From the NCBI RefSeq assembly GCF_988243305.1, contig NZ_OZ547136.1: a stretch of DNA of 64,000 nucleotides; one strand, 5' to 3'. The notes under the pieces were generated by a model. The model ran no database searches. It saw only the letters and a list, made by a program, of their open reading frames with translations, and had not been told where the DNA came from. Below are positions 4,005 to 39,379 of the stretch, piece by piece (the first letter of the stretch is position 1; each line of letters begins with the position of its first letter). The position numbers and the translations under genes were made by a program.

Positions 4005-5378
4005 TTAACTCCGCTTATACAGCGGCAACCAAATCACCAGCCGTAAACCGCCCAGCGGGCTGTCTTCCGCTTTAACCCAGCCACGATGCTGCTGAATGGC
4101 GGTTTCAACAATCGCCAGCCCCAAACCTGTACCGCCAGATTCACGATCGCGTGCTTCATCGGTCCGATAGAACGGACGGAAAATCTGTTCGCGATCTTCC
4201 GGGCTAACGCCAGGACCATCGTCGTCCACCGTAATGGTGATACCGTCTTTATCTACCGCAAAGCCCACTTCAATCTTCGTATGGGAATAACGCAGAGCAT
4301 TACGAACAATGTTTTCCAGCGCACTTTCCAGGGCGTTCGGATTGCCGTACAGCGGCCACGGCCCAGGCGGGAAGTTAACCATCAACGACTTGCCCATCTG
4401 CTCGGCTTCGAACGCCGCGTTATCCAGCACTTCGCCCCACAACTGGTTAGCTTTCAATGTCTCGCTTACCAGCGCGTTTTTCTGCTGATTACGTGACATC
4501 ACCAACAGATCGTTAATCATGCTGTCCAGACGTTGCGCTTCGGTTTCAATACGCTCCAGTTCCTTGCTTTCACCGCTACGACGGCGCAGTAACGCCGTAC
4601 CCAGTTGCAGACGCGTCAGCGGGGTGCGCAGCTCGTGAGAGATATCAGAAAGTAGACGCTGCTGAGAGGTCATCATGCGCTCCAGCGCGGTGACCATCTG
4701 GTTAAAACTGGCACCTGCGGCAAGGAATTCCTGTGGCCCCGCTTCCAGTTCCGGGTGCTGGCGTAAGTTTCCCTGGGCAACTTCATCGGCAGCGTTTTTC
4801 AGCTTACGCGCCGGTTTTGCCAGACTCCAGGCCAACCACAACAGCAACGGCGTACTGACCAGCATGGTGACAATCAGCAGTAATAGCGGGCGGTCAAACA
4901 GTAAGTTAATGAAATCGGATTGAGAACTGCTGGCCGGACGAATCAGATAAAGTTGGTAATTATCTTCGCCATCACGCACGGAGAACGGACCGACCAGTTC
5001 CACGCGCCCATACTTTTTCTTCTGCGGATGATCGGCGTTATCGGCCTGACCAATAAAGTTACGAATGATCTGCATTTCGCTGCGTTCAGCGCCGATCACG
5101 CGGCCTTCGGTGGTCACCAATAACAAACGCTGTCCTGGCGGTGCCCACTTATCAATCGCCCGGAACAGACGCCGCCACCACATTAAATCATTGGGCGGAT
5201 CGTTCGCCAGCTCCGCTTCGACATGCTGCTCAATCATCAGACCCTGACGCTGTTCGCTATCCAGAAGCTCGGTCATCTGGCGTGAATCGAGCTTGGGTAA
5301 CATCAAAACCAACATCAACACCAGCGCCAGCGTCAGCCAGAAGATGGCGAAGATGCGCGCGGTTAAGCTGCCTATCAT
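4005..5378 (-). CDS. cpxA: Envelope-stress sensor histidine kinase CpxA
   Basis: 457 aa; 2 TM, HAMP, HisKA (HELRTPLTRL), HATPase; overlaps cpxR stop. Confidence 0.95.
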   Translation of the reverse strand: MIGSLTARIFAIFWLTLALVLMLVLMLPKLDSRQMTELLDSEQRQGLMIEQHVEAELANDPPNDLMWWRRLFRAIDKWAPPGQRLLLVTTEGRVIGAERSEMQIIRNFIGQADNADHPQKKKYGRVELVGPFSVRDGEDNYQLYLIRPASSSQSDFINLLFDRPLLLLIVTMLVSTPLLLWLAWSLAKPARKLKNAADEVAQGNLRQHPELEAGPQEFLAAGASFNQMVTALERMMTSQQRLLSDISHELRTPLTRLQLGTALLRRRSGESKELERIETEAQRLDSMINDLLVMSRNQQKNALVSETLKANQLWGEVLDNAAFEAEQMGKSLMVNFPPGPWPLYGNPNALESALENIVRNALRYSHTKIEVGFAVDKDGITITVDDDGPGVSPEDREQIFRPFYRTDEARDRESGGTGLGLAIVETAIQQHRGWVKAEDSPLGGLRLVIWLPLYKRS

Positions 5379-6222: not shown

Positions 6223-6723
6223 ATGCGCATAGTTACCGCTGCCGTCATGGCCTCAACGCTGGCAGTCAGTTCATTAAGCCACGCTGCTGAAGTCGGTTCA
6301 GGCGATAACTGGCATCCGGGTGAAGAACTTACGCAGCGCAGTACGCAGAGCCATATGTTCGACGGCATAAGTTTAACCGAACATCAGCGTCAGCAGATGC
6401 GAGATCTTATGCAACAGGCCCGGCACGAACAGCCTCCTGTTAATGTTAGCGAACTGGAGACAATGCATCGCCTTGTCACCGCAGAAAATTTTGATGAAAA
6501 CGCTGTGCGCGCACAGGCAGAAAAAATGGCGAATGAGCAAATTGCTCGTCAGGTTGAGATGGCAAAAGTCCGCAACCAAATGTATCGCCTGTTAACGCCG
6601 GAGCAGCAAGCGGTTTTAAACGAGAAACATCAACAACGAATGGAGCAGTTGCGCGACGTGACGCAATGGCAAAAAAGTTCATCGTTGAAGCTATTGAGTA
6701 GTAGCAACTCACGTTCCCAGTAG
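6223..6723 (+). CDS. cpxP: Periplasmic adaptor/inhibitor CpxP
   Basis: 166 aa, signal peptide then LTXXQ-type repeats; divergent from cpxR. Confidence 0.9.
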
Positions 6724-6746
6724 TAAACCCTGTTTTCCTTGCCATA

Positions 6747-6793
6747 GACACCATCCCTGTCTTCCCCCACATGATGTGGGGGTTTTTTTTATC
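6747..6793 (+). repeat. attL core of prophage (47-bp direct repeat, includes cpxP terminator hairpin)
   Basis: gacaccatccctgtcttcccccacatgatgtgggggttttttttatc identical at 6747..6793 and 38352..38398. Confidence 0.8.
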
Positions 6794-6875
6794 AATTACT
6801 TACATGCAATCAAAAGTAAAAACAGGTACTTATCGAAAGCTGTAAGGGTTTGGAGCGGTTTCAAAATTTCTTGAG

Positions 6876-6894
6876 TGTGGACACTATGTGGACA
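6876..6894 (+). promoter_or_regulatory. Candidate Int arm-type binding sites (tandem TGTGGACA)
   Basis: tgtggacactatgtggaca near attL; similar tgtggacgctatgtggaca near attR at 38285..38303. Confidence 0.4.
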
Positions 6895-6909
6895 TTCAGA
6901 GGGGGAAAT

Positions 6910-7920
6910 TTATAACGTCACTCCGCCTTTTAGTGGATTCAGAGCGACGGCATTTTGCAGATAGTCAGGCGCAAGGTGCGCATAGGCCATCGTCTGCTGA
7001 ATGCTCGCATGTCCCAGAATCTGTTGCAGTGCGATTATATTGCCCCCATTCATCATGAAATGGCTTGCGAATGTATGCCGCAGGATGTGGGTTGCCTGAT
7101 TGGGTGGTATATCAGGTTTCACTCTGCGTAAAATCCCGCAAAATTTCTCATAATCAACTTTGAATAATTTGGCGCTGGCCTCCTCTTTAACTTTTTTCTC
7201 CAGTTCCTCAGAAATCGGCACGGTTCGCTTTTTACCGTTTTTGGTTTTCAGGAAGGTAACCCTGCAATTTGTAATCTGTGCTGGTTTTAGCGTGGCAACT
7301 TCCGTCCATCTTCCTCCGGTGCTCAGACATAAAAGCGCGACAAGTAAGTCATCACCAGCCAAAACATTTAACAGTTTTTCGATTTCTGCTTTTTCCAGGA
7401 ACGTCATTTCAGGGTTGGCCTCCGCCAGTGGCGGCAGTCCGTGAATTGGGTGTTGCCCGGAAAATTCATCCAATTGAATTAATTTTGTGAACATGCCGGA
7501 TAATCGGTACATGTCACGGTTTATCGTTGCGGCACTGATACCATCACGTAGTCGCATGGAACGATAATCCATCAAAGCCCTTTTGCTCATCCTGCTCACT
7601 GGTATATCACCTATGCCGCTGATGGTTTTGAGTAGATGATTAAACTCTTTTGTTCCATGCTCGTGGTTTTGCCCGTGATATTTCCACCAGATGTCCAGCA
7701 ACTCACTCAAAGTCCGGCGGTCTGCTCGCTGGCCTCCCCATTCTTTCTGACTGGCATTGGCGATTGTGTATCGCTCAAATGCTAGTGCTTCAGCTTTTCT
7801 TTCGAATTTCCTGCGGATGCGTTTTCCGTCGCGACCGCGAGGTCTAATGTCCACTTCATAGCGACCATCATCGAGCTTCTTAATTGCCATAAGAAAGCCC
7901 TCCGGCGCTGTATTCACCAT
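6910..7920 (-). CDS. int: P2-type tyrosine integrase
   Basis: 336 aa, adjacent to attL, C-terminal R..H..R..Y catalytic-domain pattern (HILRHTFASH...AYAHL). Confidence 0.9.
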   Translation of the reverse strand: MVNTAPEGFLMAIKKLDDGRYEVDIRPRGRDGKRIRRKFERKAEALAFERYTIANASQKEWGGQRADRRTLSELLDIWWKYHGQNHEHGTKEFNHLLKTISGIGDIPVSRMSKRALMDYRSMRLRDGISAATINRDMYRLSGMFTKLIQLDEFSGQHPIHGLPPLAEANPEMTFLEKAEIEKLLNVLAGDDLLVALLCLSTGGRWTEVATLKPAQITNCRVTFLKTKNGKKRTVPISEELEKKVKEEASAKLFKVDYEKFCGILRRVKPDIPPNQATHILRHTFASHFMMNGGNIIALQQILGHASIQQTMAYAHLAPDYLQNAVALNPLKGGVTL

Positions 7921-7959
7921 CTTGGTAGCAAATGGTAAAAATGTAATCTTTATATAGAG

Positions 7960-8253
7960 TTAGCCAATCCTTTTCGCGGAGTGGTTGGACTCTGTTGACT
8001 CTGGCCCAATGTGCGCGAGAGCCGGTGCGATTTGTCCTGCGTCCGGCGCGGTTTTATCTGTCATAAGCCATAGAGCATATTTTTGGAATGTGGGATGCAT
8101 AGTGATTTTTAGCAAAGCTGTGCCACCGGGTTCAAAGTTTCCTCCTTCATATTTTTTAAGTGTGCTTAGCGGTAACTCTATGATTTCACAGAATTTTGAT
8201 TGGCTTAGCCCTTCAGCCTCACGCAAGGCCTTAATCTTTTCGCTTAATTTCAT
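7960..8253 (-). CDS. P2 C-type immunity repressor
   Basis: 97 aa HTH protein; C-terminal QIAPALAH motif as in P2 C; divergent from cox. Confidence 0.8.
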   Translation of the reverse strand: MKLSEKIKALREAEGLSQSKFCEIIELPLSTLKKYEGGNFEPGGTALLKITMHPTFQKYALWLMTDKTAPDAGQIAPALAHIGPESTESNHSAKRIG

Positions 8254-8264
8254 TTGACATGGTG

Positions 8265-8308
8265 CCTATATAGGGACTAAATTCCCTCAAAACTGGAACC
8301 TATATAGG
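8265..8308 (+). promoter_or_regulatory. Candidate early operator: two CCTATATAGG palindromic 10-mers in C/cox divergent region
   Basis: cctatatagg at 8265..8274 and 8299..8308; TTGACA at 8254..8259. Confidence 0.35.
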
Positions 8309-8374
8309 TTCCATTGATTTGAGAATAAACCAGCATCTAAACGGTTTTGAGTGGTTTAGAAAGGGCTGGATCCT

Positions 8375-8662
8375 ATGAGGGTACCATATATGGACGCTGA
8401 AAATTATGTGATTCAGTATCCGCTTGATGCGGTTCATGTGGATAAATTTGCTGATTTATTAGGGAAGCCAAAGACAGCCGTCAGTGAAATGGTGAAGGCA
8501 AATAAATTACCAATTATTGAATTGCGTGATCCTTGCAAACCGAAGGCTCGTGCCGGTGAAAAATGGGTTTTCATTCCTGAGTTTAATCGCGCTGTACGTG
8601 AGGCGTTTTATAACCGACCGGTTGAACAGCGTGATGCATGGCTTTTGTGGATGGGGTTGTGA
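8375..8662 (+). CDS. cox: Cox-like excisionase/transcriptional switch
   Basis: 95 aa, position and similarity to P2 Cox (…LPIIELRDP…AGEKWVFIP…RDAWLLWMGL). Confidence 0.7.
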   Translation: MRVPYMDAENYVIQYPLDAVHVDKFADLLGKPKTAVSEMVKANKLPIIELRDPCKPKARAGEKWVFIPEFNRAVREAFYNRPVEQRDAWLLWMGL

Positions 8663-8835
8663 TTATGAATGAGCCGCGTTGTATTGCTCAGTTATTGCGT
8701 AACGAAAGCCCCAGGGCGATTGACTTCACTATCACCCACGGTAAGGGGCGTAAGGGAATCATTATCCGCACCAAAAAACAGAGTCCGTTAAAAAAGGCTC
8801 TGACCTTTCTGAAAAGCCGGAGGGTATGGAAATGA
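8638..8835 (+). CDS. Hypothetical early protein (P2 orf78 position)
   Basis: Small basic ORF between cox and B; likely starts at internal ATG 8665. Confidence 0.4.
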   Translation: MAFVDGVVIMNEPRCIAQLLRNESPRAIDFTITHGKGRKGIIIRTKKQSPLKKALTFLKSRRVWK

Positions 8836-9332
8836 CAGTGATGACGCTCAATCTCGTTGAAAAACAGCCAGCAGCTATGCGCCGGATAATTGGCAAGCAT
8901 CTTGCCGTCCCTCGCTGGCAGGATACATGTGATTATTATAATCAGATGATGGAGCGCGAACGGCTAACGGTTTGCTTTCATGCACAGTTAAAACAGCGTC
9001 ACGCAACGATGCGTTTTGAAGAAATGAACGACGTCGAACGTGAACGACTGGTTTGTGCAATTGATGAATTGCGTGGCGCATTCTCAAAACGCCGTCAGGT
9101 CGGCGCAAGTGAGTATGCATATATTAGTTTTTTAACAGTCAGTCAGCGTCGTACTTTATTTATGCATGCGGGATTGACAGAAAAAGAATTCAATCAGCCG
9201 TACTGGCGAATTAATGAAGAATCATGTTACTGGCGTGATGCTTTATTCCGTGCATTACGTGAATTATTCAGTCTGTTTGAGTATGCACCGACAATTCTGA
9301 CGTCGGTAAAACCAGAGCAATATCTGCATTAA
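8826..9332 (+). CDS. Replication protein B-like
   Basis: 168 aa at P2 gene B position. Confidence 0.55.
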   Translation: MEMTVMTLNLVEKQPAAMRRIIGKHLAVPRWQDTCDYYNQMMERERLTVCFHAQLKQRHATMRFEEMNDVERERLVCAIDELRGAFSKRRQVGASEYAYISFLTVSQRRTLFMHAGLTEKEFNQPYWRINEESCYWRDALFRALRELFSLFEYAPTILTSVKPEQYLH

Positions 9333-9395
9333 ATAATTAACCAGAGTTTTTAACGCACTTAATCGTGCGGGGCTTCTTTTTGCCTGGAGAAAGTC

Positions 9396-9620
9396 ATGCA
9401 TACAGTTTCTGAAAATCAGTGCGGTAAATACGCATTACTGCTGCAACAGGCCAGAACCGAAGCACAGGCCGACGCTGCGACGCGCTTTTCTTCTCATCTT
9501 GACGCCATGATTCGCCACATCACAAAGGCGGAGTTATCCCGCGTGGAGATAGTTGAGCTGCTCAGTCAGGAGTCGGAAAAATTTCACAATATCGGATTGT
9601 CTCGCGGGGAGGTGCTTTGA
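9396..9620 (+). CDS. Hypothetical early protein
   Basis: 74-aa ORF in early operon, translationally coupled series. Confidence 0.4.
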
Positions 9621-9922
9621 TGTCCTGTTCTCGTTCGGTTGTATTACTGAATAACGCCTTAAAAATCGCCGTTATGAAAAATGGTGATTTGTCTCTTATT
9701 CAACTTGGTATTGATAAAGAGAAGCGCGAAATAACTGAATCTGTTATCGCGATTTATCAGAGTGAATTAAACCTCCTGTCTGATGTGGTCAATTTACTTG
9801 TTAAACGCGCTGTATTCCACAAGCAAATTTCCTCAGTGGATGAACTGACAAAATTAACGACAGAACTCGCCAGTTATTGCGCTGATGAATTTAAGAAGCT
9901 GAACGACAAAAGGAGCTGGTAA
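9617..9922 (+). CDS. Hypothetical early protein
   Basis: 101-aa ORF, overlapping stop/start with neighbours. Confidence 0.4.
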
Positions 9923-10146
9923 TGCCGGACAACGTGGATTTTATTCAGGAACAACAGGCTGAATTACTGGAGCGCCAGATTAACGCGGCAAGGGTAAAAC
10001 ATTGCGGTGTTTCTGCGCTGGTTTGCGAAGAGTGTGACGCGCCAATACCTGCTGCCCGTCGTGCGGCTTATCCGTCAGCCACGCGTTGTGTTTCCTGTCA
10101 GTCAGTCTTTGAAGCAAAAAACAAACATTACCGGAGAACGGCATGA
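9922..10146 (+). CDS. TraR/DksA-family C4 zinc-finger protein
   Basis: CxxC...CxxC (CEECDAPIP...CVSCQ) in 74 aa. Confidence 0.6.
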   Translation: MPDNVDFIQEQQAELLERQINAARVKHCGVSALVCEECDAPIPAARRAAYPSATRCVSCQSVFEAKNKHYRRTA

Positions 10147-10418
10147 GTATTCGTATTGAAATTGGCGAACGTTATGTCGTTACCAGTGACAGCTTTCAGT
10201 TTATTCTCCACGAGAAAAAGAGAGCGGAAAGCGGTAAAAACGCCGGTCAGGAATGGCTGGCGGTGGTTGGTTATTACCCGAAATTAGGCCAGCTCGTTTC
10301 CGGCCTGATGCATCACGATATTCTGACCGGAAGCGCAAAATCTTTTGCTGATTTAAACGCGCAGGTTGAGCAACTCAGCAAGCGTTGTTCAGAGGCTTTT
10401 GGCTCATATGGCCGTTAA
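10143..10418 (+). CDS. Hypothetical early protein
   Basis: 91-aa ORF overlapping gene A start. Confidence 0.45.
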   Translation: MSIRIEIGERYVVTSDSFQFILHEKKRAESGKNAGQEWLAVVGYYPKLGQLVSGLMHHDILTGSAKSFADLNAQVEQLSKRCSEAFGSYGR

Positions 10419-12684
10419 AGCCTCCGGGCGTTTTGTCCCTCCGTCAGCATTTACCGCAGGCACCGGTAAGGCGTTTACCGGTGCTTATGCATGGAACGCG
10501 CCACGCGAGGATGTCGGGCGCGAAAGACCTCTTACACGTGACGAGATGCGTCAGGTGCAAGGTGTTTTATCCACGATTAACCGCCTGCCTTACTTTTTGC
10601 GCTCGCTGTTTACTTCACGCTATGACTACATCCGGCGCAATAAAAGCCCGGTGCACGGGTTTTATTTCCTCACATCTACTTTTCAGCGTCGTTTATGGCC
10701 GCGCATTGAGCGTGTGAATCAGCGCCATGAAATGAACACCGACGCGTCGTTGCTGTTTCTGGCAGAGCGTGACCACTATGCGCGCCTGCCGGGAATGAAT
10801 GACAAGGAGCTGAAAAAGTTTGCCGCCCGTATCTCATCGCAGCTTTTCATGATGTATGAGGAACTCTGCGATGCATGGGTTGATGCGCATGGTGAAAAAG
10901 AATCGCTGTTTACGGATGAGGCGCAGGCTCACCTGTATGGTCATGTTGCTGGCGCTGCACGTGCTTTCAATATTTCCCCGCTCTACTGGAAAAAATACCG
11001 TAAAGGACAGATGACCACGAGGCAGGCATATTCTGCCATTGCCCGCCTGTTTAACGATGAGTGGTGGATTCATCAGCTTAAAGGCCAGCGTATGCGCTGG
11101 CATGAGGCGTTACTGATAGCTGTCGGGGAGGTCAATAAAGACCGTTCTCCTTATGCCAGTAAACACGCCATTCGTGATGTGCGTGCGCGCCGCCAGGCAA
11201 ATCTGGAATTTCTTAAATCGTGTGACCTTGAAAACAGGGAAACCGGCGAGCGCATCGACCTTATCAGTAAGGTGATGGGCAGTATTTCTAATCCTGAAAT
11301 TCGCCGGATGGAGCTGATGAACACCATTGCCGGTATTGAGCGTTACGCCGCCGCAGAGGGTGATGTGGGGATGTTTATCACGCTGACCGCGCCGTCAAAG
11401 TATCACCCGACACGTCAGGTCGGAAAAGGCGAAAGTAAAACCGTTCAGCTTAATCACGGCTGGAACGATGAGGCATTTAATCCAAAGGATGCGCAGCGTT
11501 ATCTCTGCCGTATCTGGAGCCTGATGCGCACGGCATTCAAGGATAATGATTTACAGGTCTACGGTTTGCGAGTCGTCGAGCCACACCACGACGGAACGCC
11601 GCACTGGCATATGATGCTTTTTTGTCATCCACGCCAGCGTAACCAGATTATCGAAATCATGCGTCGCTATGCGCTCAAAGAGGATGGCGACGAAAGAGGA
11701 GCCGCGCGAAACCGTTTTCAGGCAAAACACCTTAACCGGGGCGGTGCTGCGGGATATATCGCGAAATACATTTCAAAAAACATCGACGGCTATGCACTGG
11801 ATGGTCAGCTCGATAACGACACCGGCAGGCCGCTGAAAGACACTGCAGCGGCTGTTACCGCATGGGCGTCAACGTGGCGCATTCCGCAATTTAAAACGGT
11901 TGGCCTGCCGACAATGGGGGCTTACCGTGAACTACGCAAATTGCCTCGCGGCGTCAGCATTGCTGATGAGTTTGACGAGCGCGTCGAGGCTGCACGCGCC
12001 GCCGCAGACGGTGGTGATTTTGCGCTGTATATCAGCGCGCAGGGCGGGGCAAATGTCCCGCGCGATTGTCAGACTGTCAGGGTCGCCCGTAGTCTGTCGG
12101 ATGACGTTAACGAGTACGAGGAAGAAGTCGAGAGAGTGGTCGGCATTTACGCGCCGCATCTCGGCGCGCGTCATATTCATATCACCAGAACGACGGACTG
12201 GCGCATTGTGCCGAAAGTTCCGGTCGTTGAGCCTTTGACTTTAAAAAGCGGCATCGCCGCGCCTCGGAGTCCTGTCAATAACTGTGGAAAGCTCACCGGT
12301 GGTGATACTTCGTTACCGGCTCCCACACCTTCTGAGCACGCCGCAGCAGTGCTTAATCTGGTTGATGACGATGTTATCGAATGGAATGACCCGGAGGTCG
12401 TGAGGGCGCTCAGGGGCGCATTAAAACACGACCGGAGAACGCCAAACCGTCAGCAAAGAAACGGAAGCCCGTTAAAACCGCATGAAATTGCACCATCGGC
12501 CAGACTGACCCGGTCGGAACGATTGCAAATTACCCGTATCCGCGTTGATCTCGCTCAGAACGGTATCAGGCCGCAACGATGGGAGCTTGAGGCGCTGGCG
12601 CGTGGCGCGACCGTAAATTATGACGGGAAACCTTTCACTTATCAGGTCGCTGATGATTGGCCGGGATTTTTGTTACCCATTTGA
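10408..12684 (+). CDS. P2 gpA-type rolling-circle replication initiator endonuclease
   Basis: ~758 aa from ATG 10408 (ORF-track frame opens 10366); HxH and tyrosine-containing motifs (PHHDGTPHWHMMLF, AGYIAKYISKN). Confidence 0.85.
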   Translation: MAVKASGRFVPPSAFTAGTGKAFTGAYAWNAPREDVGRERPLTRDEMRQVQGVLSTINRLPYFLRSLFTSRYDYIRRNKSPVHGFYFLTSTFQRRLWPRIERVNQRHEMNTDASLLFLAERDHYARLPGMNDKELKKFAARISSQLFMMYEELCDAWVDAHGEKESLFTDEAQAHLYGHVAGAARAFNISPLYWKKYRKGQMTTRQAYSAIARLFNDEWWIHQLKGQRMRWHEALLIAVGEVNKDRSPYASKHAIRDVRARRQANLEFLKSCDLENRETGERIDLISKVMGSISNPEIRRMELMNTIAGIERYAAAEGDVGMFITLTAPSKYHPTRQVGKGESKTVQLNHGWNDEAFNPKDAQRYLCRIWSLMRTAFKDNDLQVYGLRVVEPHHDGTPHWHMMLFCHPRQRNQIIEIMRRYALKEDGDERGAARNRFQAKHLNRGGAAGYIAKYISKNIDGYALDGQLDNDTGRPLKDTAAAVTAWASTWRIPQFKTVGLPTMGAYRELRKLPRGVSIADEFDERVEAARAAADGGDFALYISAQGGANVPRDCQTVRVARSLSDDVNEYEEEVERVVGIYAPHLGARHIHITRTTDWRIVPKVPVVEPLTLKSGIAAPRSPVNNCGKLTGGDTSLPAPTPSEHAAAVLNLVDDDVIEWNDPEVVRALRGALKHDRRTPNRQQRNGSPLKPHEIAPSARLTRSERLQITRIRVDLAQNGIRPQRWELEALARGATVNYDGKPFTYQVADDWPGFLLPI

Positions 12685-12942
12685 GTAAAAATACAGCGTG
12701 ATTTTATATGTCTTTGAATGGATTATGCGAAACACCTCTAAGGTAGATGAGGAGCAATAGCGTGTTGAATCAGAAGGCTAAATTGTATTGAATCGTTAGC
12801 ATGTAATTGAAGGCAGCTATTTGATTCGAGTCATAAAAGAGCATCTATTTCGGTTAATAAAACCATTGCGAGTGACTTTATGTCGAAGCATAATTCATCT
12901 CGAGCGAAGTCTTGCTAGTCTTTCATCGGATTGATGACGGGC

Positions 12943-12975
12943 GCAAAAAAACCACCCTGGCAGGTGGTTTTTTTG
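12943..12975. terminator. Bidirectional rho-independent terminator
   Basis: A-run, accacc-ctggca-ggtggt hairpin, T-run. Confidence 0.5.
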
Positions 12976-12986
12976 TTTGAAGCATA

Positions 12987-13100
12987 CTAAAGAAAAATAC
13001 TTACATGGATATTACTGACGTTTACTGACAAACCACTCGGACTACCATATGGATAGCCAAAGAGGGCCAGAACGAGAATGCAGTAATAGCACTTCTTCAT
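12987..13100 (-). CDS. Hypothetical 37-aa hydrophobic peptide (MKKCYYCILVLALFGYPYGSPSGLSVNVSNIHVSIFL)
   Basis: ATG with AGGAGG 5-10 nt upstream; terminator immediately downstream on the same strand. Confidence 0.3.
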   Translation of the reverse strand: MKKCYYCILVLALFGYPYGSPSGLSVNVSNIHVSIFL

Positions 13101-13822
13101 ATCGCCTCCTGTAAGCAGAGGGCAATTTCCGCCGATATATGCGCTTCTAAGGCGGAGTGACTATTGAGCGAAGTCTTGCCCTGAAATAATGCTCTGTTTA
13201 AACGCAAAGTGATCTGGCATATCACCGAACAGAGGACCTGAACAACACAACATATAGTATGTCGTTGTTTCTGGTTGCATTTTATGTTGTGTAATACTGG
13301 TTTTGCATCAAGGATGTTTGAGCTTTTTTTGATATAGCTCAAAGTAAAAAGCAGAGACTACGGATGATAAGGTCTTGAAAGCAATGTAAATTTTTTAAAG
13401 TTGTGAGTGGCTAGAAATGCACAGTTTCAATATGGCGGATTTAAACAAGTAATTAAAAATAGCGACACAAATTCCAATAAAATCATTAAGTTGCGTTTTC
13501 TGTGGAAACTTCGGTGACTCTGAAATTTTCTTTTAGTATCGCTGAGGTTTAACAACTCGCTGCGCAAGTAGTTAGTGTTTTTTTTAACTCAATATTCTGA
13601 TTTATAAGGTTTTTTATAAATCGTGGGCTGGTTGCGCATATTCATCTCGTGTTATCAGCAAAGATAAGCTCTATATGCAGAACTGAATGCATATATGATG
13701 TCGAAAATGTTATGGGAAAACGTGGATTAGTGTTATAGTAATGGCTGAAAAACAGCCTTGACATAAAATAACAACTGTGATATGGCTGTGCATACTTAAC
13801 TTTTTTAACGTAGGAGGCAACC

Positions 13823-14308
13823 ATGAGCTATGCAGCTAAAAAACTGCTTGACCGCTATTGGGATCGCCGACTACCTGTCGATCCGTTTAAGCTTGCTAAA
13901 GCGTGGGGTGCTCGTGTTGAAGCACTTGAGGAATCGGCTTATAACAACGATGGGTTAAGCGGTCTGGCTGTCATCAAAAAGGGTGTCCATAGGATTTATT
14001 TTGATTCTAGTGAACATTCTAATCGTCAACGTTTTACTGTTGCACACGAGTTAGGTCATCATGTGCTGGGGCATACCCAGGACGGAGAGTACCATCGGGA
14101 TAATGTCGGGAATTATTCAACAGGTGCTCGTGATTACCGTGAGGTTGAAGCAAACAAGTTTGCTGCTGAGTTGTTAATGCCTGAGTCTGCTATACGTCAA
14201 TTGGTATCCAGAGAAGGTATTGATAGCACTTTGAGATTAGCAAGCATCTTTAATGTATCAGAAGCCGCTATGCATTGGCGCTTAAAGAGCTTAGGAATGG
14301 CTTATTAA
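13823..14308 (+). CDS. ImmA/IrrE-family HEXXH zinc metallopeptidase-like protein (161 aa)
   Basis: HELGHHVLGH plus downstream E (FAAELLMPE); AGGAGG SD; promoter-like TTGACA at 13761; AT-rich cargo. Confidence 0.75.
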   Translation: MSYAAKKLLDRYWDRRLPVDPFKLAKAWGARVEALEESAYNNDGLSGLAVIKKGVHRIYFDSSEHSNRQRFTVAHELGHHVLGHTQDGEYHRDNVGNYSTGARDYREVEANKFAAELLMPESAIRQLVSREGIDSTLRLASIFNVSEAAMHWRLKSLGMAY

Positions 14309-14374
14309 TTAGCCTTTAACTTTTAACCTGTTTAAAATCACCTTTACGTTTGTACATGTAAGGGTGATTTTTTT

Positions 14375-14974
14375 ATGGCTGATATTGATTTATCTGGACA
14401 GTCCCCAGAGCAAGGAACCACTCCTAAGGGCGATTTAGATCCTGATATCCTTATAAGGCGAGATAGACGGGATGGTATAGAGCGTAGAAGTATGCGATTA
14501 GTGCTCTCTGCCGTTGTGCTTTGTTTTGCTTGTACATTTCTATGGCAGGGGCTTAACTTTGCTTTGGCTGTTGGAAATGGCTTGCTGGAAGCGAAAAGCA
14601 GTATTGCCGCAGCGATAACACAAAAAGTAGATACACAAACTTGTGTTTCAGCAGAAAAATGTTCTGCTTTATCTTCGGATCCGAAGATGGCTGATGAGAG
14701 GATAACACCATCTTCAGACACTAATAAAGTTAGAAAATCTATTTCTGGTTTATCCACCGATTGGTTATCGGCCAGTTCTCTAATAGCTATTGTTGCATTC
14801 ATCCTTGGTGTGGGTTTAACTTTGCTTTTGACTCTTCTTAAATCAGCATTTCAACACCCGACAGATAAAGACTTTAGAACAAAGTCGACATCTAATACTA
14901 TTGAGTTGGCCACGCCAATCAGTGAATTAATAATTGGTGTTCTGAATATAATTAAAGACAAACTATCTAAGTAA
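14375..14974 (+). CDS. Hypothetical membrane protein, two predicted TM helices (199 aa)
   Basis: Hydrophobic segments ~res 40-66 and 130-155; start codon sits in T-run of upstream terminator hairpin. Confidence 0.6.
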   Translation: MADIDLSGQSPEQGTTPKGDLDPDILIRRDRRDGIERRSMRLVLSAVVLCFACTFLWQGLNFALAVGNGLLEAKSSIAAAITQKVDTQTCVSAEKCSALSSDPKMADERITPSSDTNKVRKSISGLSTDWLSASSLIAIVAFILGVGLTLLLTLLKSAFQHPTDKDFRTKSTSNTIELATPISELIIGVLNIIKDKLSK

Positions 14975-15056
14975 AGCATTAGTTGTGATTTTTTATTGGT
15001 TTTAGTGATAATACATCTCCAGTACTTATTGTTACTGGAGAGTATTTTTAGTCGTT

Positions 15057-15998
15057 TTATATTTTTAATGTTAGTGAATGATATTCACGAGAGTTCACGT
15101 TCGATGTGATGTAATCGGGGGCGTTAACACCAAGAATCGCAACGAGTAATCGGCAAATTAAAGCCTGCATTTGTTGTAATATGTCATCTCCATATTGATA
15201 ATTGTTAATAGTGGTAAAGCCAAGTGGTTGACCATGAAACATAGCTTCATGAAAGTTTTCATTGCGGATGTTTGTAATGTTTTTTTTACCTGTAACCCAT
15301 GATGGTCGTGGTATTCCATAAGTTTTGCAGATCCACTTCAAGCGCCTGGAGTGATTTAGAGTCTTTTCTGTACACTTGTTCTTTTCTGCCCATGTTAAAG
15401 CAAAGCAACTATCCAGTGCCATATAAAGATACTGGAATTTTTCGAAGCTAAGGTATTGTGGGTTTTGGGATAAAAATAGTGCATGCACTATTGCTGCTAT
15501 ATTTATTGGTGCGTGTTTGGTTTTTGTCTCGCTAGACATGTATTTGAGTGCTAATTCTATAACCTCTTTTTCAGAGCACTTGACCAGAATAAAGTCAGTT
15601 AATTTGCTGGGTTTTATTGGGGTTGCGTCTAAAAAACCGGCATCAGTAGTTGTTAATCTTATCCCTTTGAAAAAAGACAGACACCACACAGCAAAATTGA
15701 GAGTTTCTAGTGAAGATGTATTTTTTAATTTTAGTGAGTGTGTTTTGGGTAAGCCAAATACTCGTTGGCTAAAAGGCATTGTGGATATGCCTCCATTGAG
15801 GTTATATACTTCTTGGTTTCCTGGGTATATCCAACCGTTAATAACATTTCTGTGATTGTTTATAAGATTTGTTTTTTCCGCTAGACCGGGTAAAGTAAGT
15901 AAAGAAAAATCATCAGTTTCAACGTTAACTTCTACTGGATAGTATCCAAACTCAGCTTCAATATCATTGGATTGCTGTTCGTCAACTTTACCTTGCAT
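15057..15998 (-). CDS. Hypothetical protein, 313 aa, unknown function (candidate phage-exclusion effector)
   Basis: Long ORF in AT-rich DNA (sampled lines roughly 35-40% GC vs >50% flanks), GGAG SD, convergent with membrane-protein gene; R-x4-H at ~245-250. Confidence 0.65.
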   Translation of the reverse strand: MQGKVDEQQSNDIEAEFGYYPVEVNVETDDFSLLTLPGLAEKTNLINNHRNVINGWIYPGNQEVYNLNGGISTMPFSQRVFGLPKTHSLKLKNTSSLETLNFAVWCLSFFKGIRLTTTDAGFLDATPIKPSKLTDFILVKCSEKEVIELALKYMSSETKTKHAPINIAAIVHALFLSQNPQYLSFEKFQYLYMALDSCFALTWAEKNKCTEKTLNHSRRLKWICKTYGIPRPSWVTGKKNITNIRNENFHEAMFHGQPLGFTTINNYQYGDDILQQMQALICRLLVAILGVNAPDYITSNVNSREYHSLTLKI

Positions 15999-16236
15999 AC
16001 ATTGCTCCGGTCAAAAATAGGCTCGATAATTCTCGTAAGCCTATCATGTTCGCAAAGTATCCATACCTGTGGATTTTGTAAATTTAAGTTGATTTGTCAT
16101 TAAATAAGCCGTTGCATGCAACAAGTGAATGTTTTTGCATGCGTCGGGGATGTCCGTTCAGGCTGCGTGCGGTCAGGACTGGTGCGGATCCATAGTATCT
16201 ATGCAACTGCATTAAAACCGCCCCATGAAGCGGGCG

Positions 16237-16255
16237 GGCGAGGCGGGGAAAGCAC
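16237..16255 (+). other. Phage cos site (19-nt cohesive end GGCGAGGCGGGGAAAGCAC)
   Basis: Matches recalled P2 cohesive-end sequence; located between cargo island and portal gene. Confidence 0.6.
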
Positions 16256-16395
16256 TGCGCGCTGGCGGTGGTGCTGATTTTATTTTTTCAGCGTCTCAGC
16301 GCGTCGTGACGGCGTTTGGATTGTGCGCCGGGGCGTTGGTGTGTCTGTGGGGTGTTTTGTGCGGTGGTGAGCGTGTGAGGGCGTGATGACGGGGT

Positions 16396-16420
16396 GTAAA
16401 AAAGCCGCCCGCAGGCGGCG
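16396..16420 (-). terminator. Rho-independent terminator downstream of portal gene
   Basis: gccgcc-cgca-ggcggc hairpin followed by T-run on minus strand. Confidence 0.45.
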
Positions 16421-16424
16421 ATGT

Positions 16425-28168: not shown

Positions 28169-29529
28169 CAGTGAAATACTACGCCATTCTGACTATTCAG
28201 GGCGCAGCACGGCTGGCTAACGCGACGATGCTCGGCAGTAAGCTGAATCTGACGCAAATGGCCGTTGGTGATGCGAATGGTGTCTTGCCGACACCAGACC
28301 CGGCACAGACAAAACTGATTAACCAGAAACGCATTGCACCGCTGAATCTTCTTAGTGTTGACCCGAACAACCAGAGCCAGATTATTGCGGAGCAAATCAT
28401 CCCTGAGAGCGAGGGCGGATTCTGGATCCGTGAGATTGGGCTTTATGATGATGAAGGCGTACTCATTGCGGTGGCGAACTGCCCGGAAACGTACAAACCG
28501 CAGTTGCAGGAAGGCAGCGGTCGTACCCAGACTATCCGCATGATTCTGGTTGTCACGAATACCGAAGCCATCACGCTGAAAATCGACCCGTCGGTGGTAC
28601 TGGCGACCCGTAAATACGTGGATGATGAAGTCCTGGAATTAAAGCTGTATGTGGATGACCAGATGAGAAACCACATTGCCGCACAGGATCCTCATACCCA
28701 GTATGCGCAGAAACATAATCCGACATTTACCGGAGAACCAAAAGCGCCGACGCCTGCCGCAGGAAATAACACCACGCGGATTGCGACCACTGAGTTTGTT
28801 CAGGCCGCTATTACCGCTCTGATTAACGGTGCGCCAGCCACACTGGACACACTGAAAGAAATTGCCGCGGCCATTAACAATGACCCGAAATTCAGCACCA
28901 CCATTAACAATGCGCTGTCAGGTAAGCAGCCACTGGATGAGACGCTGACTCATTTGAGTGGAAAGGATGTAGCTGGTCTTCTCGCATACCTTGGTTTGGG
29001 AGAAGGTTCGGCATTACCCGTTGGCGTGCCTGTTCCGTGGCCTTCCGCCACTCCGCCAACAGGCTGGCTGAAATGCAACGGTGCCGCTTTTTCTGCTGAA
29101 GAATACCCGGAACTGGCAAAGGCTTATCCGACAAATAAATTGCCTGATTTACGTGGTGAGTTTATTCGTGGCTGGGATGACGGGCGTGGTGTGGATGCGG
29201 GACGTGCCTTGCTAAGTCTTCAGGATGACTCTTTTGAAGCGCACAGGCATGAGTCCTTTTTTTACGCGGGTATTTCTCGCAATGAAATACCATTAAAAAA
29301 TCTTCCAAGTTCAGACGAGATGCTGACTTTAAGTTCTACAACTAATGCCTTGTCCCCGGACGGTATTGATGCCACTAATTCGTTAATTGGTAATGATGAT
29401 TACAACTGTCTGATTGAAGGAAATAAAAATAACAAACGAACAGCGACGGGGTTGAGTACCAGTATTGTCGGTGCAGCAGAGACACGCCCACGTAATATTT
29501 CATTTAATTACATTGTGAGGGCTGCATGA
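28165..29529 (+). CDS. Tail fibre protein (gpH-like), constant N-terminus + currently expressed variable C-terminus
   Basis: 454 aa; contains inversion crossover site at 28991..29004. Confidence 0.85.
   Translation: MTVKYYAILTIQGAARLANATMLGSKLNLTQMAVGDANGVLPTPDPAQTKLINQKRIAPLNLLSVDPNNQSQIIAEQIIPESEGGFWIREIGLYDDEGVLIAVANCPETYKPQLQEGSGRTQTIRMILVVTNTEAITLKIDPSVVLATRKYVDDEVLELKLYVDDQMRNHIAAQDPHTQYAQKHNPTFTGEPKAPTPAAGNNTTRIATTEFVQAAITALINGAPATLDTLKEIAAAINNDPKFSTTINNALSGKQPLDETLTHLSGKDVAGLLAYLGLGEGSALPVGVPVPWPSATPPTGWLKCNGAAFSAEEYPELAKAYPTNKLPDLRGEFIRGWDDGRGVDAGRALLSLQDDSFEAHRHESFFYAGISRNEIPLKNLPSSDEMLTLSSTTNALSPDGIDATNSLIGNDDYNCLIEGNKNNKRTATGLSTSIVGAAETRPRNISFNYIVRAA
28991..29004 (+). repeat. Inversion crossover site, left (ttggtttgggagaa)
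   Basis: 14-bp perfect inverted repeat with 30904..30917; Hin/Gin-site-like AAACC...GGTTT core. Confidence 0.7.
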
Positions 29530-30131
29530 TGTATAACGCCATCTTGAATAGTAAACTTATTGCCACAAAGGCAGGAGAGATTACCGTTTATAACTATGAC
29601 AGTGAGACACGGGAGTATATTTCTGCATCAACTGAATATCTTGCTGTGGGTGTCGGTATCCCTGCATATTCCTGTTTAGATGCTCCTGGCACACATAAGG
29701 CTGGTTATGCAATCTGCCGTTCGGCAGATTTAAACTCATGGGAATATGTGCCAGACCATCGCGGTGAAATCATCTATAGCACCGAAACAGGAGAATCGAA
29801 AGAAATCACAGCTCCGGGTGATTATCCTGAAAATACAACCACTATCGCCCCGTTAACGCCATACGATGAATGGGATGGTGAGAAATGGGTAACAGATACT
29901 GTGGCACAGCATAGCGCCGCAGTAGGCGCGGCAGAAGCACAGCGCCAGTCACTGATTGATGCAGCAATGGCTTCCATTAGTCTGATTCAGCTGAAATTAC
30001 AGGCCGGACGGAAGTTGACGCAGGCAGAAACAACCAGCCTTAACGCTGTGCTGGATTACATTGACGCGGTGACGGCAACTGATACCAGCACCGCGCCTGA
30101 TGTCATCTGGCCTGAACTGCCGGAGGCGTAG
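29526..30131 (+). CDS. Tail fibre assembly chaperone (gpG-like)
   Basis: 201 aa following H. Confidence 0.8.
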   Translation: MMYNAILNSKLIATKAGEITVYNYDSETREYISASTEYLAVGVGIPAYSCLDAPGTHKAGYAICRSADLNSWEYVPDHRGEIIYSTETGESKEITAPGDYPENTTTIAPLTPYDEWDGEKWVTDTVAQHSAAVGAAEAQRQSLIDAAMASISLIQLKLQAGRKLTQAETTSLNAVLDYIDAVTATDTSTAPDVIWPELPEA

Positions 30132-30543
30132 GCCATTCAATATCTGGCGCACCGGAAGTATCGACCAGCTCCAGTGCGTCCAGATAATCCAGCCACAAAT
30201 TATATTGCGCCAGTTCCTCACCTTTCAGACGACCAATAGCCGCTTTACCAGGCCATTGTTTACTGTTCATGTATTCGTTGGCCTGGTTAATCAATTGCTG
30301 TTTTTCCAGTTCGGCTGCAGCAATCTGTTCCTCATGTGTTGGTGGTGGAATTTCAGACCATGCAGGAAAACCATTTTCTCCAGCGATGCGGATTTTCCCT
30401 TCCGGCGGTAATCCGGAAAACTCAATATACACCTGCTCGTCAACTTCAACAGCATCATCTGGCCATGATTCAGCTTGAGTGTAATCCTCTTTCATCTCCA
30501 GCGGATAGAAAGAGTTTGTAGTCGCGGAATATATATAATTCAT
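30103..30543 (-). CDS. Alternative tail fibre assembly chaperone (G') in invertible segment
   Basis: 146 aa, C-terminus resembles that of G, convergent and overlapping. Confidence 0.7.
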   Translation of the reverse strand: MNYIYSATTNSFYPLEMKEDYTQAESWPDDAVEVDEQVYIEFSGLPPEGKIRIAGENGFPAWSEIPPPTHEEQIAAAELEKQQLINQANEYMNSKQWPGKAAIGRLKGEELAQYNLWLDYLDALELVDTSGAPDIEWPTPPAVQAR

Positions 30544-30564
30544 TTCTCATTCCATATAGCTAAA

Positions 30565-30917
30565 TTAACAGCCTAACGCTAAAAATGAAGCGCCGAGACC
30601 TGGAGTACTGGCTCTGGATATAAATTTAACCGGGTCGGGACTAAAACCTGCACAGGCAATATAACCAACAGCCCCGCTATCTGGTGTGTAGTCTTGTGAG
30701 ACCAAAACACGCAGACATCTGTTTGGAAATGCAATCGGGAAATGGGTTACTACATCCTGTGCAATGCCTGGTGCGCCGATTGAGCCCCACTGAAGAATAA
30801 AACCTGATGGTAATTTTTGATATCCAGTACCTGAAACAGAAAGCGTGAAGCTACCCATATCAGGTATCTGATTCGCCCCTGTCCCTACATTCCTTTTAGC
30901 CGCTTCTCCCAAACCAA
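30565..30917 (-). CDS. Alternative tail-fibre C-terminal cassette (H' variable part), silent in this orientation
   Basis: Reads [14 protein letters not shown]... in same frame as H across the crossover repeat; upstream in-frame stop at 30967..30969. Confidence 0.7.
30904..30917 (-). repeat. Inversion crossover site, right
   Basis: ttctcccaaaccaacgtttatgaaaa resembles cix/gix/hix sites. Confidence 0.7.
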
Positions 30918-30984
30918 CGTTTATGAAAATGCAGAGATAACGGGCAACTGGCATCATCTCCGGTTTTTATTCAGGGGGATGCTC

Positions 30985-31578
30985 ATGCTTATTGGCTATG
31001 TACGCGTGTCAACAAATGACCAGAACACGGAATTGCAGCGTAACGCGCTGGAGTGCGCAGGATGCGAGCGGATTTTTGAGGATAAAATCAGCGGCACGAA
31101 GTCCGACCGACCGGGACTGAAAAAACTGCTCAGAACATTATCATCAGGTGACACTCTGGTAGTCTGGAAGCTGGACCGGCTGGGGCGTAGTATGCGGCAT
31201 CTGGTCATTCTGGTTGAGGAGCTGCGCGAACGCGGCGTTAATTTTCGCAGCCTGACAGATGCTATTGATACCAGCACGCCGATGGGGCGTTTTTTCTTTC
31301 ATGTGATGGGTGCCCTGGCTGAAATGGAACGAGAACTCATTGTCGAGCGGACTCGCGCCGGACTGGAAGCGGCCAGAGCTAAAGGTCGTATTGGTGGCAG
31401 ACGTCCGAAGCTCACCGCGAGTGAGTGGGAACAGGCAGGACGGTTGCTGGTTGCGGGTGAATCACGTCAACGCGTGGCGCTGATTTTTGATATTGGCCTG
31501 TCCACGCTCTATAAAAAATTCCCCTCATCAGCGGCAAAGAATAAATTGTGTCATCCCTTAGCCAACCGGGACAAATAG
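30985..31578 (+). CDS. Serine DNA invertase (Hin/Gin/Cin/Pin family)
   Basis: MLIGYVRVSTNDQ catalytic Ser motif, C-terminal HTH; adjacent to invertible segment. Confidence 0.9.
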   Translation: MLIGYVRVSTNDQNTELQRNALECAGCERIFEDKISGTKSDRPGLKKLLRTLSSGDTLVVWKLDRLGRSMRHLVILVEELRERGVNFRSLTDAIDTSTPMGRFFFHVMGALAEMERELIVERTRAGLEAARAKGRIGGRRPKLTASEWEQAGRLLVAGESRQRVALIFDIGLSTLYKKFPSSAAKNKLCHPLANRDK

Positions 31579-38021: not shown

Positions 38022-38240
38022 ATGTTTCATTGTCCTTTATGCCAGCATGCCGCACATGCGCGTACAAGCCGCTATATCACTGACACGACAAAAGAGCGTT
38101 ATCACCAGTGTCAGAACGTGAATTGCAGCGCCACGTTCATCACCTATGAGTCGGTACAGAGATACATCGTGAAGCCGGGAGAAGTCCACGCCGTAAGGCC
38201 GCACCCGTTGCCGTCAGGGCAGCAAATTATGTGGATGTGA
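38022..38240 (+). CDS. ogr: Late-gene activator Ogr (zinc finger)
   Basis: 72 aa from MFHCPLCQHAAH..., CxxC...CxxC; last gene before attR. Confidence 0.85.
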   Translation: MFHCPLCQHAAHARTSRYITDTTKERYHQCQNVNCSATFITYESVQRYIVKPGEVHAVRPHPLPSGQQIMWM

Positions 38241-38351
38241 TCACAAAAATAGCCCCTCAGTTGAGGGGCTTTATTTATGGTCGATGTGGACGCTATGTGG
38301 ACAGCGGTTGACATAAATCCATTTATATCATCAGGTTAGGTGCTTTTTTGT

Positions 38352-38398
38352 GACACCATCCCTGTCTTCCCCCACATGATGTGGGGGTTTTTTTTATC
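38352..38398 (+). repeat. attR core of prophage
   Basis: Identical 47 bp to attL. Confidence 0.8.
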
Positions 38399-38476
38399 CT
38401 CAATTTGCCTGCTGCTTAATGCATTGCAGATGATTTGCTTCCGTTATACTAGCGTCAGTTGATAGCGGGAGTATTT

Positions 38477-39379
38477 ATGAATCAATCTTATGGACGGCTG
38501 GTCAGTCGGGCGGCGATTGCTGCAACGGCGATGGCTTCACTGCTATTGCTGATTAAAATTTTTGCATGGTGGTATACCGGGTCGGTGAGTATTCTCGCCG
38601 CGCTGGTGGATTCGCTGGTGGATATCGGCGCGTCGTTGACGAATTTACTGGTGGTGCGATATTCCCTGCAACCTGCCGACGATAATCACTCGTTTGGTCA
38701 CGGTAAAGCTGAGTCCCTCGCGGCGCTGGCGCAAAGTATGTTTATCTCCGGTTCGGCACTATTCCTCTTTTTGACGGGTATTCAACATCTGATATCTCCA
38801 ACACCGATGACAGATCCAGGCGTCGGGGTAATCGTGACAATTGTGGCGCTAATTTGTACGATTATCCTTGTCTCGTTTCAGCGGTGGGTGGTGCGCCGGA
38901 CGCAAAGCCAGGCGGTGCGGGCTGATATGCTACATTACCAGTCTGATGTTATGATGAACGGCGCAATTCTGCTGGCGCTGGGGTTGTCCTGGTACGGCTG
39001 GCATCGCGCCGATGCTCTGTTTGCATTGGGAATCGGCATCTATATTTTATATAGCGCGTTACGCATGGGATATGAGGCGGTACAGTCATTACTGGATCGC
39101 GCATTGCCTGATGAAGAACGGCAAGAAATTATTGATATCGTGACTTCCTGGCCGGGTGTTAGCGGCGCTCACGATCTTCGCACGCGGCAGTCAGGGCCGA
39201 CCCGCTTTATTCAGATTCATTTGGAAATGGAAGACTCTCTGCCTTTGGTTCAGGCACATATGGTGGCGGATCAGGTAGAGCAGGCTATTTTACGGCGTTT
39301 TCCGGGATCGGATGTGATTATCCATCAGGACCCCTGTTCCGTCGTACCCAGGGAGGGTAAACGGTCTATGCTTTCATAA
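38477..39379 (+). CDS. fieF: Cation-efflux (CDF) transporter FieF/YiiP
   Basis: 300 aa from [11 protein letters not shown]. Confidence 0.9.

Follow-up and report, generated by a model that had tools for sequence, protein, structure and literature searches.

The cpxP–fieF attachment site of a Wphi-type P2-like prophage lies in the 3' end of the small RNA gene cpxQ

We analysed a stretch of DNA of 64,000 nt (hereafter, the window), in which positions 6747–38398 very probably represent a complete Wphi-type P2-like prophage, inserted by its integrase into the 3' end of the small RNA gene cpxQ with restoration of that gene. Both the type of prophage and its attachment site between cpxP and fieF were already known; what is added here is the identity of the site as the 3' end of cpxQ and the placement of the crossover in the 5' portion of the shared sequence. 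A preliminary description of this DNA had proposed a P2-like prophage at this position, and this was confirmed, as the interior of the element is 97–99% identical to P2-like phages.

The ends of the element are marked by a 47-nt direct repeat, GACACCATCCCTGTCTTCCCCCACATGATGTGGGGGTTTTTTTTATC, the two copies of which (6747–6793 and 38352–38398) are 100% identical and spaced by 31,605 nt. In a repeat search of positions 5000–41000, this pair was by far the longest direct repeat, the others being imperfect and 20–31 nt long with 66–90% identity. A chance origin of the 47-nt repeat in this 36-kb interval was therefore excluded. Each of four free phage genomes (Wphi, HQ103, R18C and L-413C) carries a single copy of these 47 nt, between ogr and int; in HQ103, the end of the match on the ogr side and the start of the match on the int side share these 47 nt. 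Likewise, the core is present once in the empty attB of E. coli, while two copies flank the prophage in the window. When the two bacterial flanks were joined via one copy of the core, the resulting 796 nt were 100% identical to the unoccupied cpxP–fieF locus of many E. coli. The left copy, the attL core (BOP'; 6747–6793), corresponds to nt 15–58 of CpxQ plus 3 nt and is identical to the attP core of Wphi. The right copy, the attR core (POB'; 38352–38398), carries nt 15–58 without the 5' 14 nt of CpxQ, and its left flank is phage DNA, as in the attP of Wphi. The earlier identification of the 47-bp repeat as the att core thus stands, given its single copy both in the attP of free phages and in the empty attB.

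The flanking genes, compared with K-12, place the insertion between cpxP and fieF, as published for Wphi and L-413C, and none of our observations contradicts integration at this site. On the left side, cpxP (6223–6723, plus strand), encoding the periplasmic Cpx modulator, is an ORF co-linear with K-12 cpxP (b4484) and ends 23 nt upstream of the left core copy, with cpxA and cpxR further to the left. The reconstructed locus differs from that of K-12 by nine mismatches in 1,073 nt. In the K-12 RefSeq annotation, the ncRNA gene cpxQ (b4716, 58 nt) begins 10 nt past the cpxP stop codon. By this annotation, cpxQ, which encodes an Hfq-dependent sRNA of 58 nt processed out of the cpxP 3'UTR, is intact at attL (6733–6790, plus strand) and is identical to K-12 at 57 of 58 positions, the only mismatch being an A in the terminator loop where K-12 has C. 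In the Cpx envelope stress response, CpxQ acts as the RNA arm; its processing by RNase E, its binding to and dependence on Hfq, and its repression of targets are known for K-12 and Salmonella (PMC4817254, PMC9438474). The RNA folds into a small hairpin, a terminator hairpin and U8. The CpxQ/cpxP intrinsic terminator was detected at 6764–6790 (plus strand) by terminator scan, as the hairpin 6764–6782 followed by U8. Each core copy holds such a terminator-like site, consisting of an 8-bp stem CCCCCACA/TGTGGGGG (six G-C pairs), a 3-nt loop and T8. The expectation of a terminator at both junctions was accordingly correct, the hairpins being located at 6764–6782 and 38369–38387, each inside a core copy.

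The overlap of attB with the 3' part of cpxQ (b4716) is precise: the core begins at nt 15, runs to the annotated 3' end at nt 58 and extends 3 nt past it. The hairpin previously assigned to cpxP as its terminator belongs to the 3' end of cpxQ, an sRNA gene. The previous view of the target was right in that the terminator lies within the core, but incomplete in that the target is the 3' 44 nt of an annotated sRNA gene. Full-length cpxQ is re-formed at attL, with int 116 nt downstream. The 5' 14 nt of CpxQ stay bacterial at attL, including the seed C5/C6/U7 and the RNase E site forming the CpxQ 5' end. This documented seed (nt 5–7), which acts against cfa and was mutated in the cfa study, falls outside the core. 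From this arrangement, CpxQ function would be expected to be untouched in lysogens.

We also searched the window against Rfam, in which no family under the name CpxQ reached the threshold. The Hrs1 family (RF02628) aligned end-to-end with the cpxQ locus (6718–6790) on the minus strand, with a score of 44.5 bits (E = 4.6e-07), short of the gathering threshold of 56.4, and with the attR copy (38329–38395, minus strand) with 31.8 bits. The hrs1 gene of Erwinia amylovora, encoding an Hfq-dependent sRNA, is located between cpxP and fieF and co-oriented with both, according to its source paper. Hrs1 and CpxQ thus share the locus and the orientation given in the source paper, and differ in the below-threshold score and the opposite strand of the match. 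Since hrs1 was published at this locus and in this orientation and yet matches on the opposite strand, the stored Rfam model appears to run antisense to the RNA; Hrs1 would then appear to be the CpxQ orthologue, with the model representing its reverse complement. The Hrs1 match was taken as a lead, and cpxQ was identified by means of the K-12 annotation. Only two Rfam families exceeded the gathering threshold in the window, namely, the ClpQY (hslVU) promoter element (54292–54349, minus strand) and the L31 ribosomal-protein leader (58961–59013, plus strand), both of which are ordinary chromosomal features.

The P2-like (Peduovirus) prophage body occupies 6794–38351, or 31,558 bp between the cores. 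Its early region (6794–12000) is 98–99% identical over the full length to HQ103, R18C, L-413C and the P2-like prophage of O157:H43 T22, and the remaining 25 kb show 97% coverage and 97.1% identity to the isolated phage MET_P1_103_31. The record of the latter is 31,582 bp long, in agreement with the 31,605-nt spacing of the repeat. The ORFs make up the full P2 gene set in the order int, C, cox, B and A, then portal, terminase, capsid, lysis and tail genes, and finally D and ogr. Together with the full-length P2-like match, this gene set suggests that the prophage is apparently intact. The gene for the C immunity repressor (7960–8253, minus strand) is an ORF of the size and position of Wphi C, with C protein annotated under the matches. 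As in the Pc-C-int transcription unit of P2, C is co-oriented with int. On the plus strand, a cox-like gene (excisionase and Pc repressor; 8375–8662, start codon uncertain) lies at the position found in Wphi, with Cox annotated under the 98–99% DNA matches, so that a putative Cox-dependent step in excision and integration can be predicted. The last phage gene before attR is ogr, the late-gene activator (38022–38240, plus strand), with Ogr annotated under 99% matches and a length of 219 nt as for P2 ogr.

Two further regions of the prophage were characterized. Positions 12685–16424 form a variable cargo region between the replication gene A and the portal gene, 99.7% identical to MET_P1_103_31, in which all of its genes are annotated as 'hypothetical'. 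It includes a 161-aa M78 peptidase (13823–14308; ImmA/IrrE-like, PADLOC capP 1e-30, also RmrA) and two ORFs (14375–14974 and 15057–15998 on the minus strand) without Pfam or PADLOC match, while approximately 1.1 kb (12685–13820) contains no ORF above 81 aa. These cargo genes may possibly serve defence or anti-defence. In the tail region, 27-nt inverted repeats at 28979–29005 (inside the tail-fibre gene H) and 30903–30929 bracket 1.9 kb, which hold a reversed alternative fibre C-terminus (30565–30957; Gp53-like_C) and a tail-fibre assembly gene (30103–30543). A serine invertase (30979–31578; Resolvase and HTH_7) adjoins this invertible tail-fibre segment, and the whole of 28979–31578 looks like a host-range switch of the Gin/Cin/Pin type.

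We then compared the integrase and the reconstructed attP with those of Wphi and P2. The Wphi-type tyrosine integrase gene int (6910–7920, minus strand; 6910–7890 if the start annotated for Wphi is used) encodes a protein identical to Wphi Int at 322 of 326 residues (99%) and 52% identical to P2 Int. Its ORF runs 10 codons (7891–7920, minus strand) upstream of the annotated Wphi start, reading MVNTAPEGFLM-AIKK..., and the same extension, MKSAPEGFLM-SIKK..., with a GTG start, is found in an 81% identical orthologue of Yokenella (11737–11766 of the Yokenella locus). As the extension is kept at the protein level in Yokenella, the true start of int may lie upstream of the annotated one. The P2 record annotates, for its own attP, the Int P arm, an IHF site, the attP core, Cox sites and the Int P' arm, and putative counterparts of the arm-type Int sites could be read from the sequence on both sides. 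The P' arm holds the direct repeat TGTGGACA-N3-TGTGGACA (6876–6894) under the annotated P' arm of P2; this repeat was also found by pattern search and is kept in the attP alignment with Wphi and P2. The P arm holds ATGTGGAC-N4-ATGTGGACA (38284–38303), which aligns with the annotated P arm of P2. A putative IHF site, TATCATCAGGTTA (38326–38338), separates the P arm from the core and corresponds in position to the IHF site annotated in P2; it agrees with the IHF consensus WATCAANNNNTTR at 12 of 13 positions and may bind IHF. In the three-way comparison of attP, the core was identical in Wphi, and the TGTGGACA arm repeats and the ogr terminator were present in all three phages.

The single difference between the window and K-12 cpxQ provided a natural marker of the crossover in lysogens, namely, an A/C polymorphism in the terminator loop at core position 28 (6774 in attL and 38379 in attR). 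Partial matches to empty sites share the same identity bands, and the count of loop alleles was thus limited to the 30 best-matching genomes and two aligned genomes. When attR carrying the C allele of K-12 was used as query, at least 30 lysogens matched with 100% identity, although these approximately 30 strains may be clonally related. When attL carrying C was used, no exact match was found among the 30 best-matching genomes; these were the same strains as those with C at attR, each with one mismatch. Alignment of two of the lysogens, M217 and 219, showed A at attL, as in the attP of Wphi, and C at attR, as in the attB of K-12. The combination of the phage A at attL with the host C at attR indicates that strand exchange occurred 5' of core position 28, within 6747–6773. 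The crossover thus lies towards the 5' side of the identity block, and the 3' part of the rebuilt cpxQ is derived from the element, as mapped by one informative position in the alignment of two lysogens and in the 30 best matches. It follows that the CpxQ terminator at attL, from at least 6774 on, is donated by the phage, while the terminator of the host sits before fieF. Within the mapped interval, AGACA and TGTCT form an inverted repeat (6746–6764) around a 7-nt spacer, CCATCCC (6751–6757), which coincides with the small hairpin of the CpxQ fold. We suggest these as putative core-type Int sites, with strand exchange probably taking place in the CCATCCC overlap; both the AGACA-N7-TGTCT sites and the exact positions of cleavage are proposed only from symmetry. 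Despite the possible clonal relation of these strains, M217 and 219 differ in the distance between their attL and attR matches, which is approximately 38.2 and 36.8 kb, respectively, compared with 31.6 kb here. Immediately before attR, both strains have a 642-nt gene annotated as 'hypothetical protein' (WP_000416606.1) in place of the 219-nt ogr, which suggests that their cargo or gene calls differ at the right end.

Based on these results, we propose the following model of integration. The tyrosine integrase, together with IHF, would recombine the phage attP, located between ogr and int and composed of the P arm, the IHF site, the 47-nt core and the P' arm, with the chromosomal attB, formed by the final 44 nt of cpxQ and a further 3 nt. 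The strands would be exchanged close to the left end of the identity block, probably within the CCATCCC spacer, and the remainder of the block would supply the 3' part of cpxQ, terminator included, as a copy carried by the phage. Integration would thereby rebuild full-length cpxQ at attL and move the original terminator of the host to attR, before fieF. The duplicated terminator would then be a by-product of this gene-restoring design and not a device acting on fieF.

The preliminary description had also raised the question of how many prophages use this attB, and we counted them in the complete E. coli genomes (n=5,426). The empty site was found in 4,593, attL (cpxP-core-int) in 792 and attR (phage-core-fieF) in 785, indicating that approximately 790 of 5,426 genomes (14.5%) are occupied. 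Beyond these genomes, the 44 nt of the core that belong to CpxQ were searched for in species-representative genomes, allowing either loop allele. Exact copies were detected in 66 loci of approximately 20 genera, including Escherichia, Salmonella, Citrobacter, Enterobacter, Klebsiella, Raoultella, Kluyvera, Kosakonia, Pantoea, Erwinia, Mixta, Edwardsiella and Yokenella; by pattern counts, 64 of the 66 loci have the bacterial CpxQ left junction. Another Escherichia species carries both attL and attR together with a 100% identical Int. In Yokenella regensburgei, attL was found with the P' arm repeats and an 81% identical Int at the same site, which indicates that the integrase lineage diverged while the target was kept.

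On the right side, two terminators precede fieF. A bidirectional intrinsic terminator, predicted on both strands by the scan, follows ogr at 38251–38270; the homologous feature of P2 carries the annotation 'rho-independent terminator for ogr transcript and F operon'. The second is the terminator copy of the attR core (38369–38395, plus strand; hairpin 38369–38387), the original cpxQ terminator of the host in lysogens, and the host C allele is kept there in M217 and 219. The gene fieF, encoding a CDF metal exporter (38477–39379, plus strand), is co-linear with K-12 b3915 and annotated as fieF in the matches, and pfkA lies beyond it in the window. In K-12, b3915 begins 82 nt past the end of cpxQ. 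In the window, the 126 nt that precede the start codon of fieF (the 47-nt core and a 79-nt spacer) are identical to those of the empty site. A fieF promoter downstream of cpxQ has been referred to by Grabowicz et al. (PMC4817254), and no promoter in the cpxP–fieF spacer is listed in a paper on constitutive promoters. In our promoter scan at attR, no plus-strand sigma-70-like site was found in the P arm, and none above the threshold between the core and fieF. A candidate −10 hexamer, TATACT (38445–38450, plus strand), which may mark the fieF promoter, was noted by eye 47 nt downstream of the core.

Three other interpretations of these junctions were considered. According to one, the repeat is not an att core but a chance match or the target-site duplication of a transposon. 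A direct repeat flanking mobile DNA is all that this interpretation accounts for; 47 exact nt in a 36-kb interval are far beyond chance, and isolated phage genomes contain these 47 nt as a single copy, indicating that the phage carries this sequence and does not generate it at insertion. With the free phage genomes, the empty sites and the repeat statistics all against it, we rejected this interpretation, the probability of which is negligible. Another interpretation, raised in the preliminary description, is that the insertion changes the expression of fieF, either by loss of the upstream context or by read-through from the F operon and ogr. The separation by approximately 31.6 kb from the ancestral upstream context is real with respect to cpxP, and the late F operon and ogr indeed point towards fieF. 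Read-through from cpxP into fieF is no longer possible in the lysogen, as 31.6 kb separate the two genes, so any contribution from the strongly Cpx-induced cpxP promoter would be abolished. However, the 126 nt before the fieF ATG are unchanged, which suggests that the promoter downstream of cpxQ (PMC4817254) is retained in the lysogen. Moreover, two tandem intrinsic terminators lie between ogr and fieF, the first being the annotated F-operon/ogr terminator of P2; combined with the unchanged 126 nt, these make the coupling of fieF to late phage transcription unlikely. In addition, the occupancy of approximately 15% of complete E. coli genomes argues against a marked effect, since it suggests no strong cost of insertion. 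The anatomy of attR therefore does not support an altered or late-transcription-coupled fieF; we consider such an effect improbable, and fieF expression in lysogens would be expected to be untouched.

The third interpretation concerns the possibility that the phage copy of CpxQ is itself regulatory. In the lysogen, a constitutively active Pc-C-int unit is convergent with cpxP–cpxQ, and the phage carries 44 nt of cpxQ in its attP. Acting as an antisense RNA, the Pc-C-int transcript could then pair with CpxQ or with the mRNA of cpxP; alternatively, attP or attR could give rise to a 5'-truncated RNA resembling CpxQ, comprising nt 15–58 with the Hfq-binding terminator. No minus-strand terminator-like site was predicted between the int stop (6910) and cpxP, and the cpxQ hairpin, when read antisense, is followed by AAGACAGG and not by a U run; with neither a minus-strand terminator nor a U tail, C-int transcripts could run antisense through cpxQ in lysogens. 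In attP, the same transcripts would cross the core and then end at the bidirectional ogr terminator. In published Hfq chimeras with RNAs of infecting phage lambda, CpxQ is likewise prominent. Nevertheless, this line of reasoning is purely structural, and gene restoration fully accounts for the 47-nt identity. As for the truncated RNA, no plus-strand sigma-70-like promoter was found upstream of the attR copy by promoter scan, and this copy is devoid of the 5' seed (nt 5–7) mutated in the cfa study. The literature that we searched contained no paper linking CpxQ with P2-like phages or attP. Regulation by the phage copy hence appears doubtful. The same holds for the wider proposal that Wphi-type phages modulate the RNA arm of the Cpx response, via an antisense int 3'UTR or a truncated RNA from attR or attP, or conversely that CpxQ regulates the int mRNA, for which we see only a slight chance. 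Integration with restoration of cpxQ is thus our preferred interpretation of the junctions.

The site itself has a history in the literature. In the study of E. coli W, the prophage Wphi1 was assigned to 'cpxP-fieF', and further P2-like prophages were placed at the RNA loci of rybB and cyaR (PMC3032704). Nilsson et al. (2011) gave the site of Wphi and L-413C as MG1655 position 4104392, with an L-413C core the same as that of Wphi, and the cpxP–fieF site was classed as lying between genes in this 2011 survey of P2-like att sites (PMC3448106). CpxQ was first described in 2016 (PMC4817254), which explains the intergenic classification of 2011. The integrase of Wphi is in use in E. coli integration plasmids of the pIT5 series. 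Position 4104392 presumably falls inside cpxQ, given an offset of approximately 2 kb between the old and the current coordinates. Our finding is a modest update at the level of annotation and does not open a long-standing question, yet it is of use for annotation and engineering: the 'cpxP-fieF intergenic' site of surveys and of the pIT5 plasmids sits inside cpxQ, and constructs or prophages at this site replace the 3' two-thirds of cpxQ with their own copy. Because the insertion swaps the 3' part of cpxQ, an attP fragment carrying less than the whole 47-nt core would leave CpxQ truncated. For a phage, the site is well suited, with a 44-nt target that is invariant in representatives of approximately 20 enterobacterial genera and a level of occupancy of approximately 15% in complete E. 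coli genomes. Together with cyaR and rybB, all three P2-like sites listed for E. coli W (PMC3032704) are sRNA loci. Were the wider proposal of regulation by Wphi-type phages true, for which the chance is slight, these sites would make the P2-type integrases a lineage specialized on the 3' ends of Hfq-dependent sRNA genes.

Finally, we compared the arrangement with known systems. With Wphi, L-413C and Wphi1, the prophage shares an Int of 99% identity, the 47-nt attP core, the arm repeats, the gene order ogr-attP-int-C-cox and the cpxP–fieF site. It differs from Wphi in the spacer of the P' arm between the core and the arm repeats, at many positions, and in the cargo of the window at 12685–16424, which matches MET_P1_103_31 and not Wphi. 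With P2 (locI), it shares a heterobivalent tyrosine Int, TGTGGACA on both arms, an IHF site, Cox as the directionality factor and an attP between ogr and int; in contrast, P2 Int is only 52% identical, its 27-nt core is unrelated and its attB is at the cyaR locus (PMC3032704). The broader class is that of elements integrating at the 3' ends of RNA genes, such as 186 in tRNA-Ile, Fels-2 and SopE-phi in ssrA, and the P2-like prophages at cyaR and rybB. As in these systems, attB overlaps the 3' part of the RNA gene, the identity block ends just past the 3' end, int is next to the restored end of the gene, and the strands cross over on the 5' side of the identity block. The difference is that cpxQ is derived from a 3'UTR and processed by RNase E, whereas the other RNA genes are independently transcribed. 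By analogy with these systems, the insertion at cpxQ is a case of classical integration at the 3' end of an RNA gene, in which the element brings a replacement 3' end.
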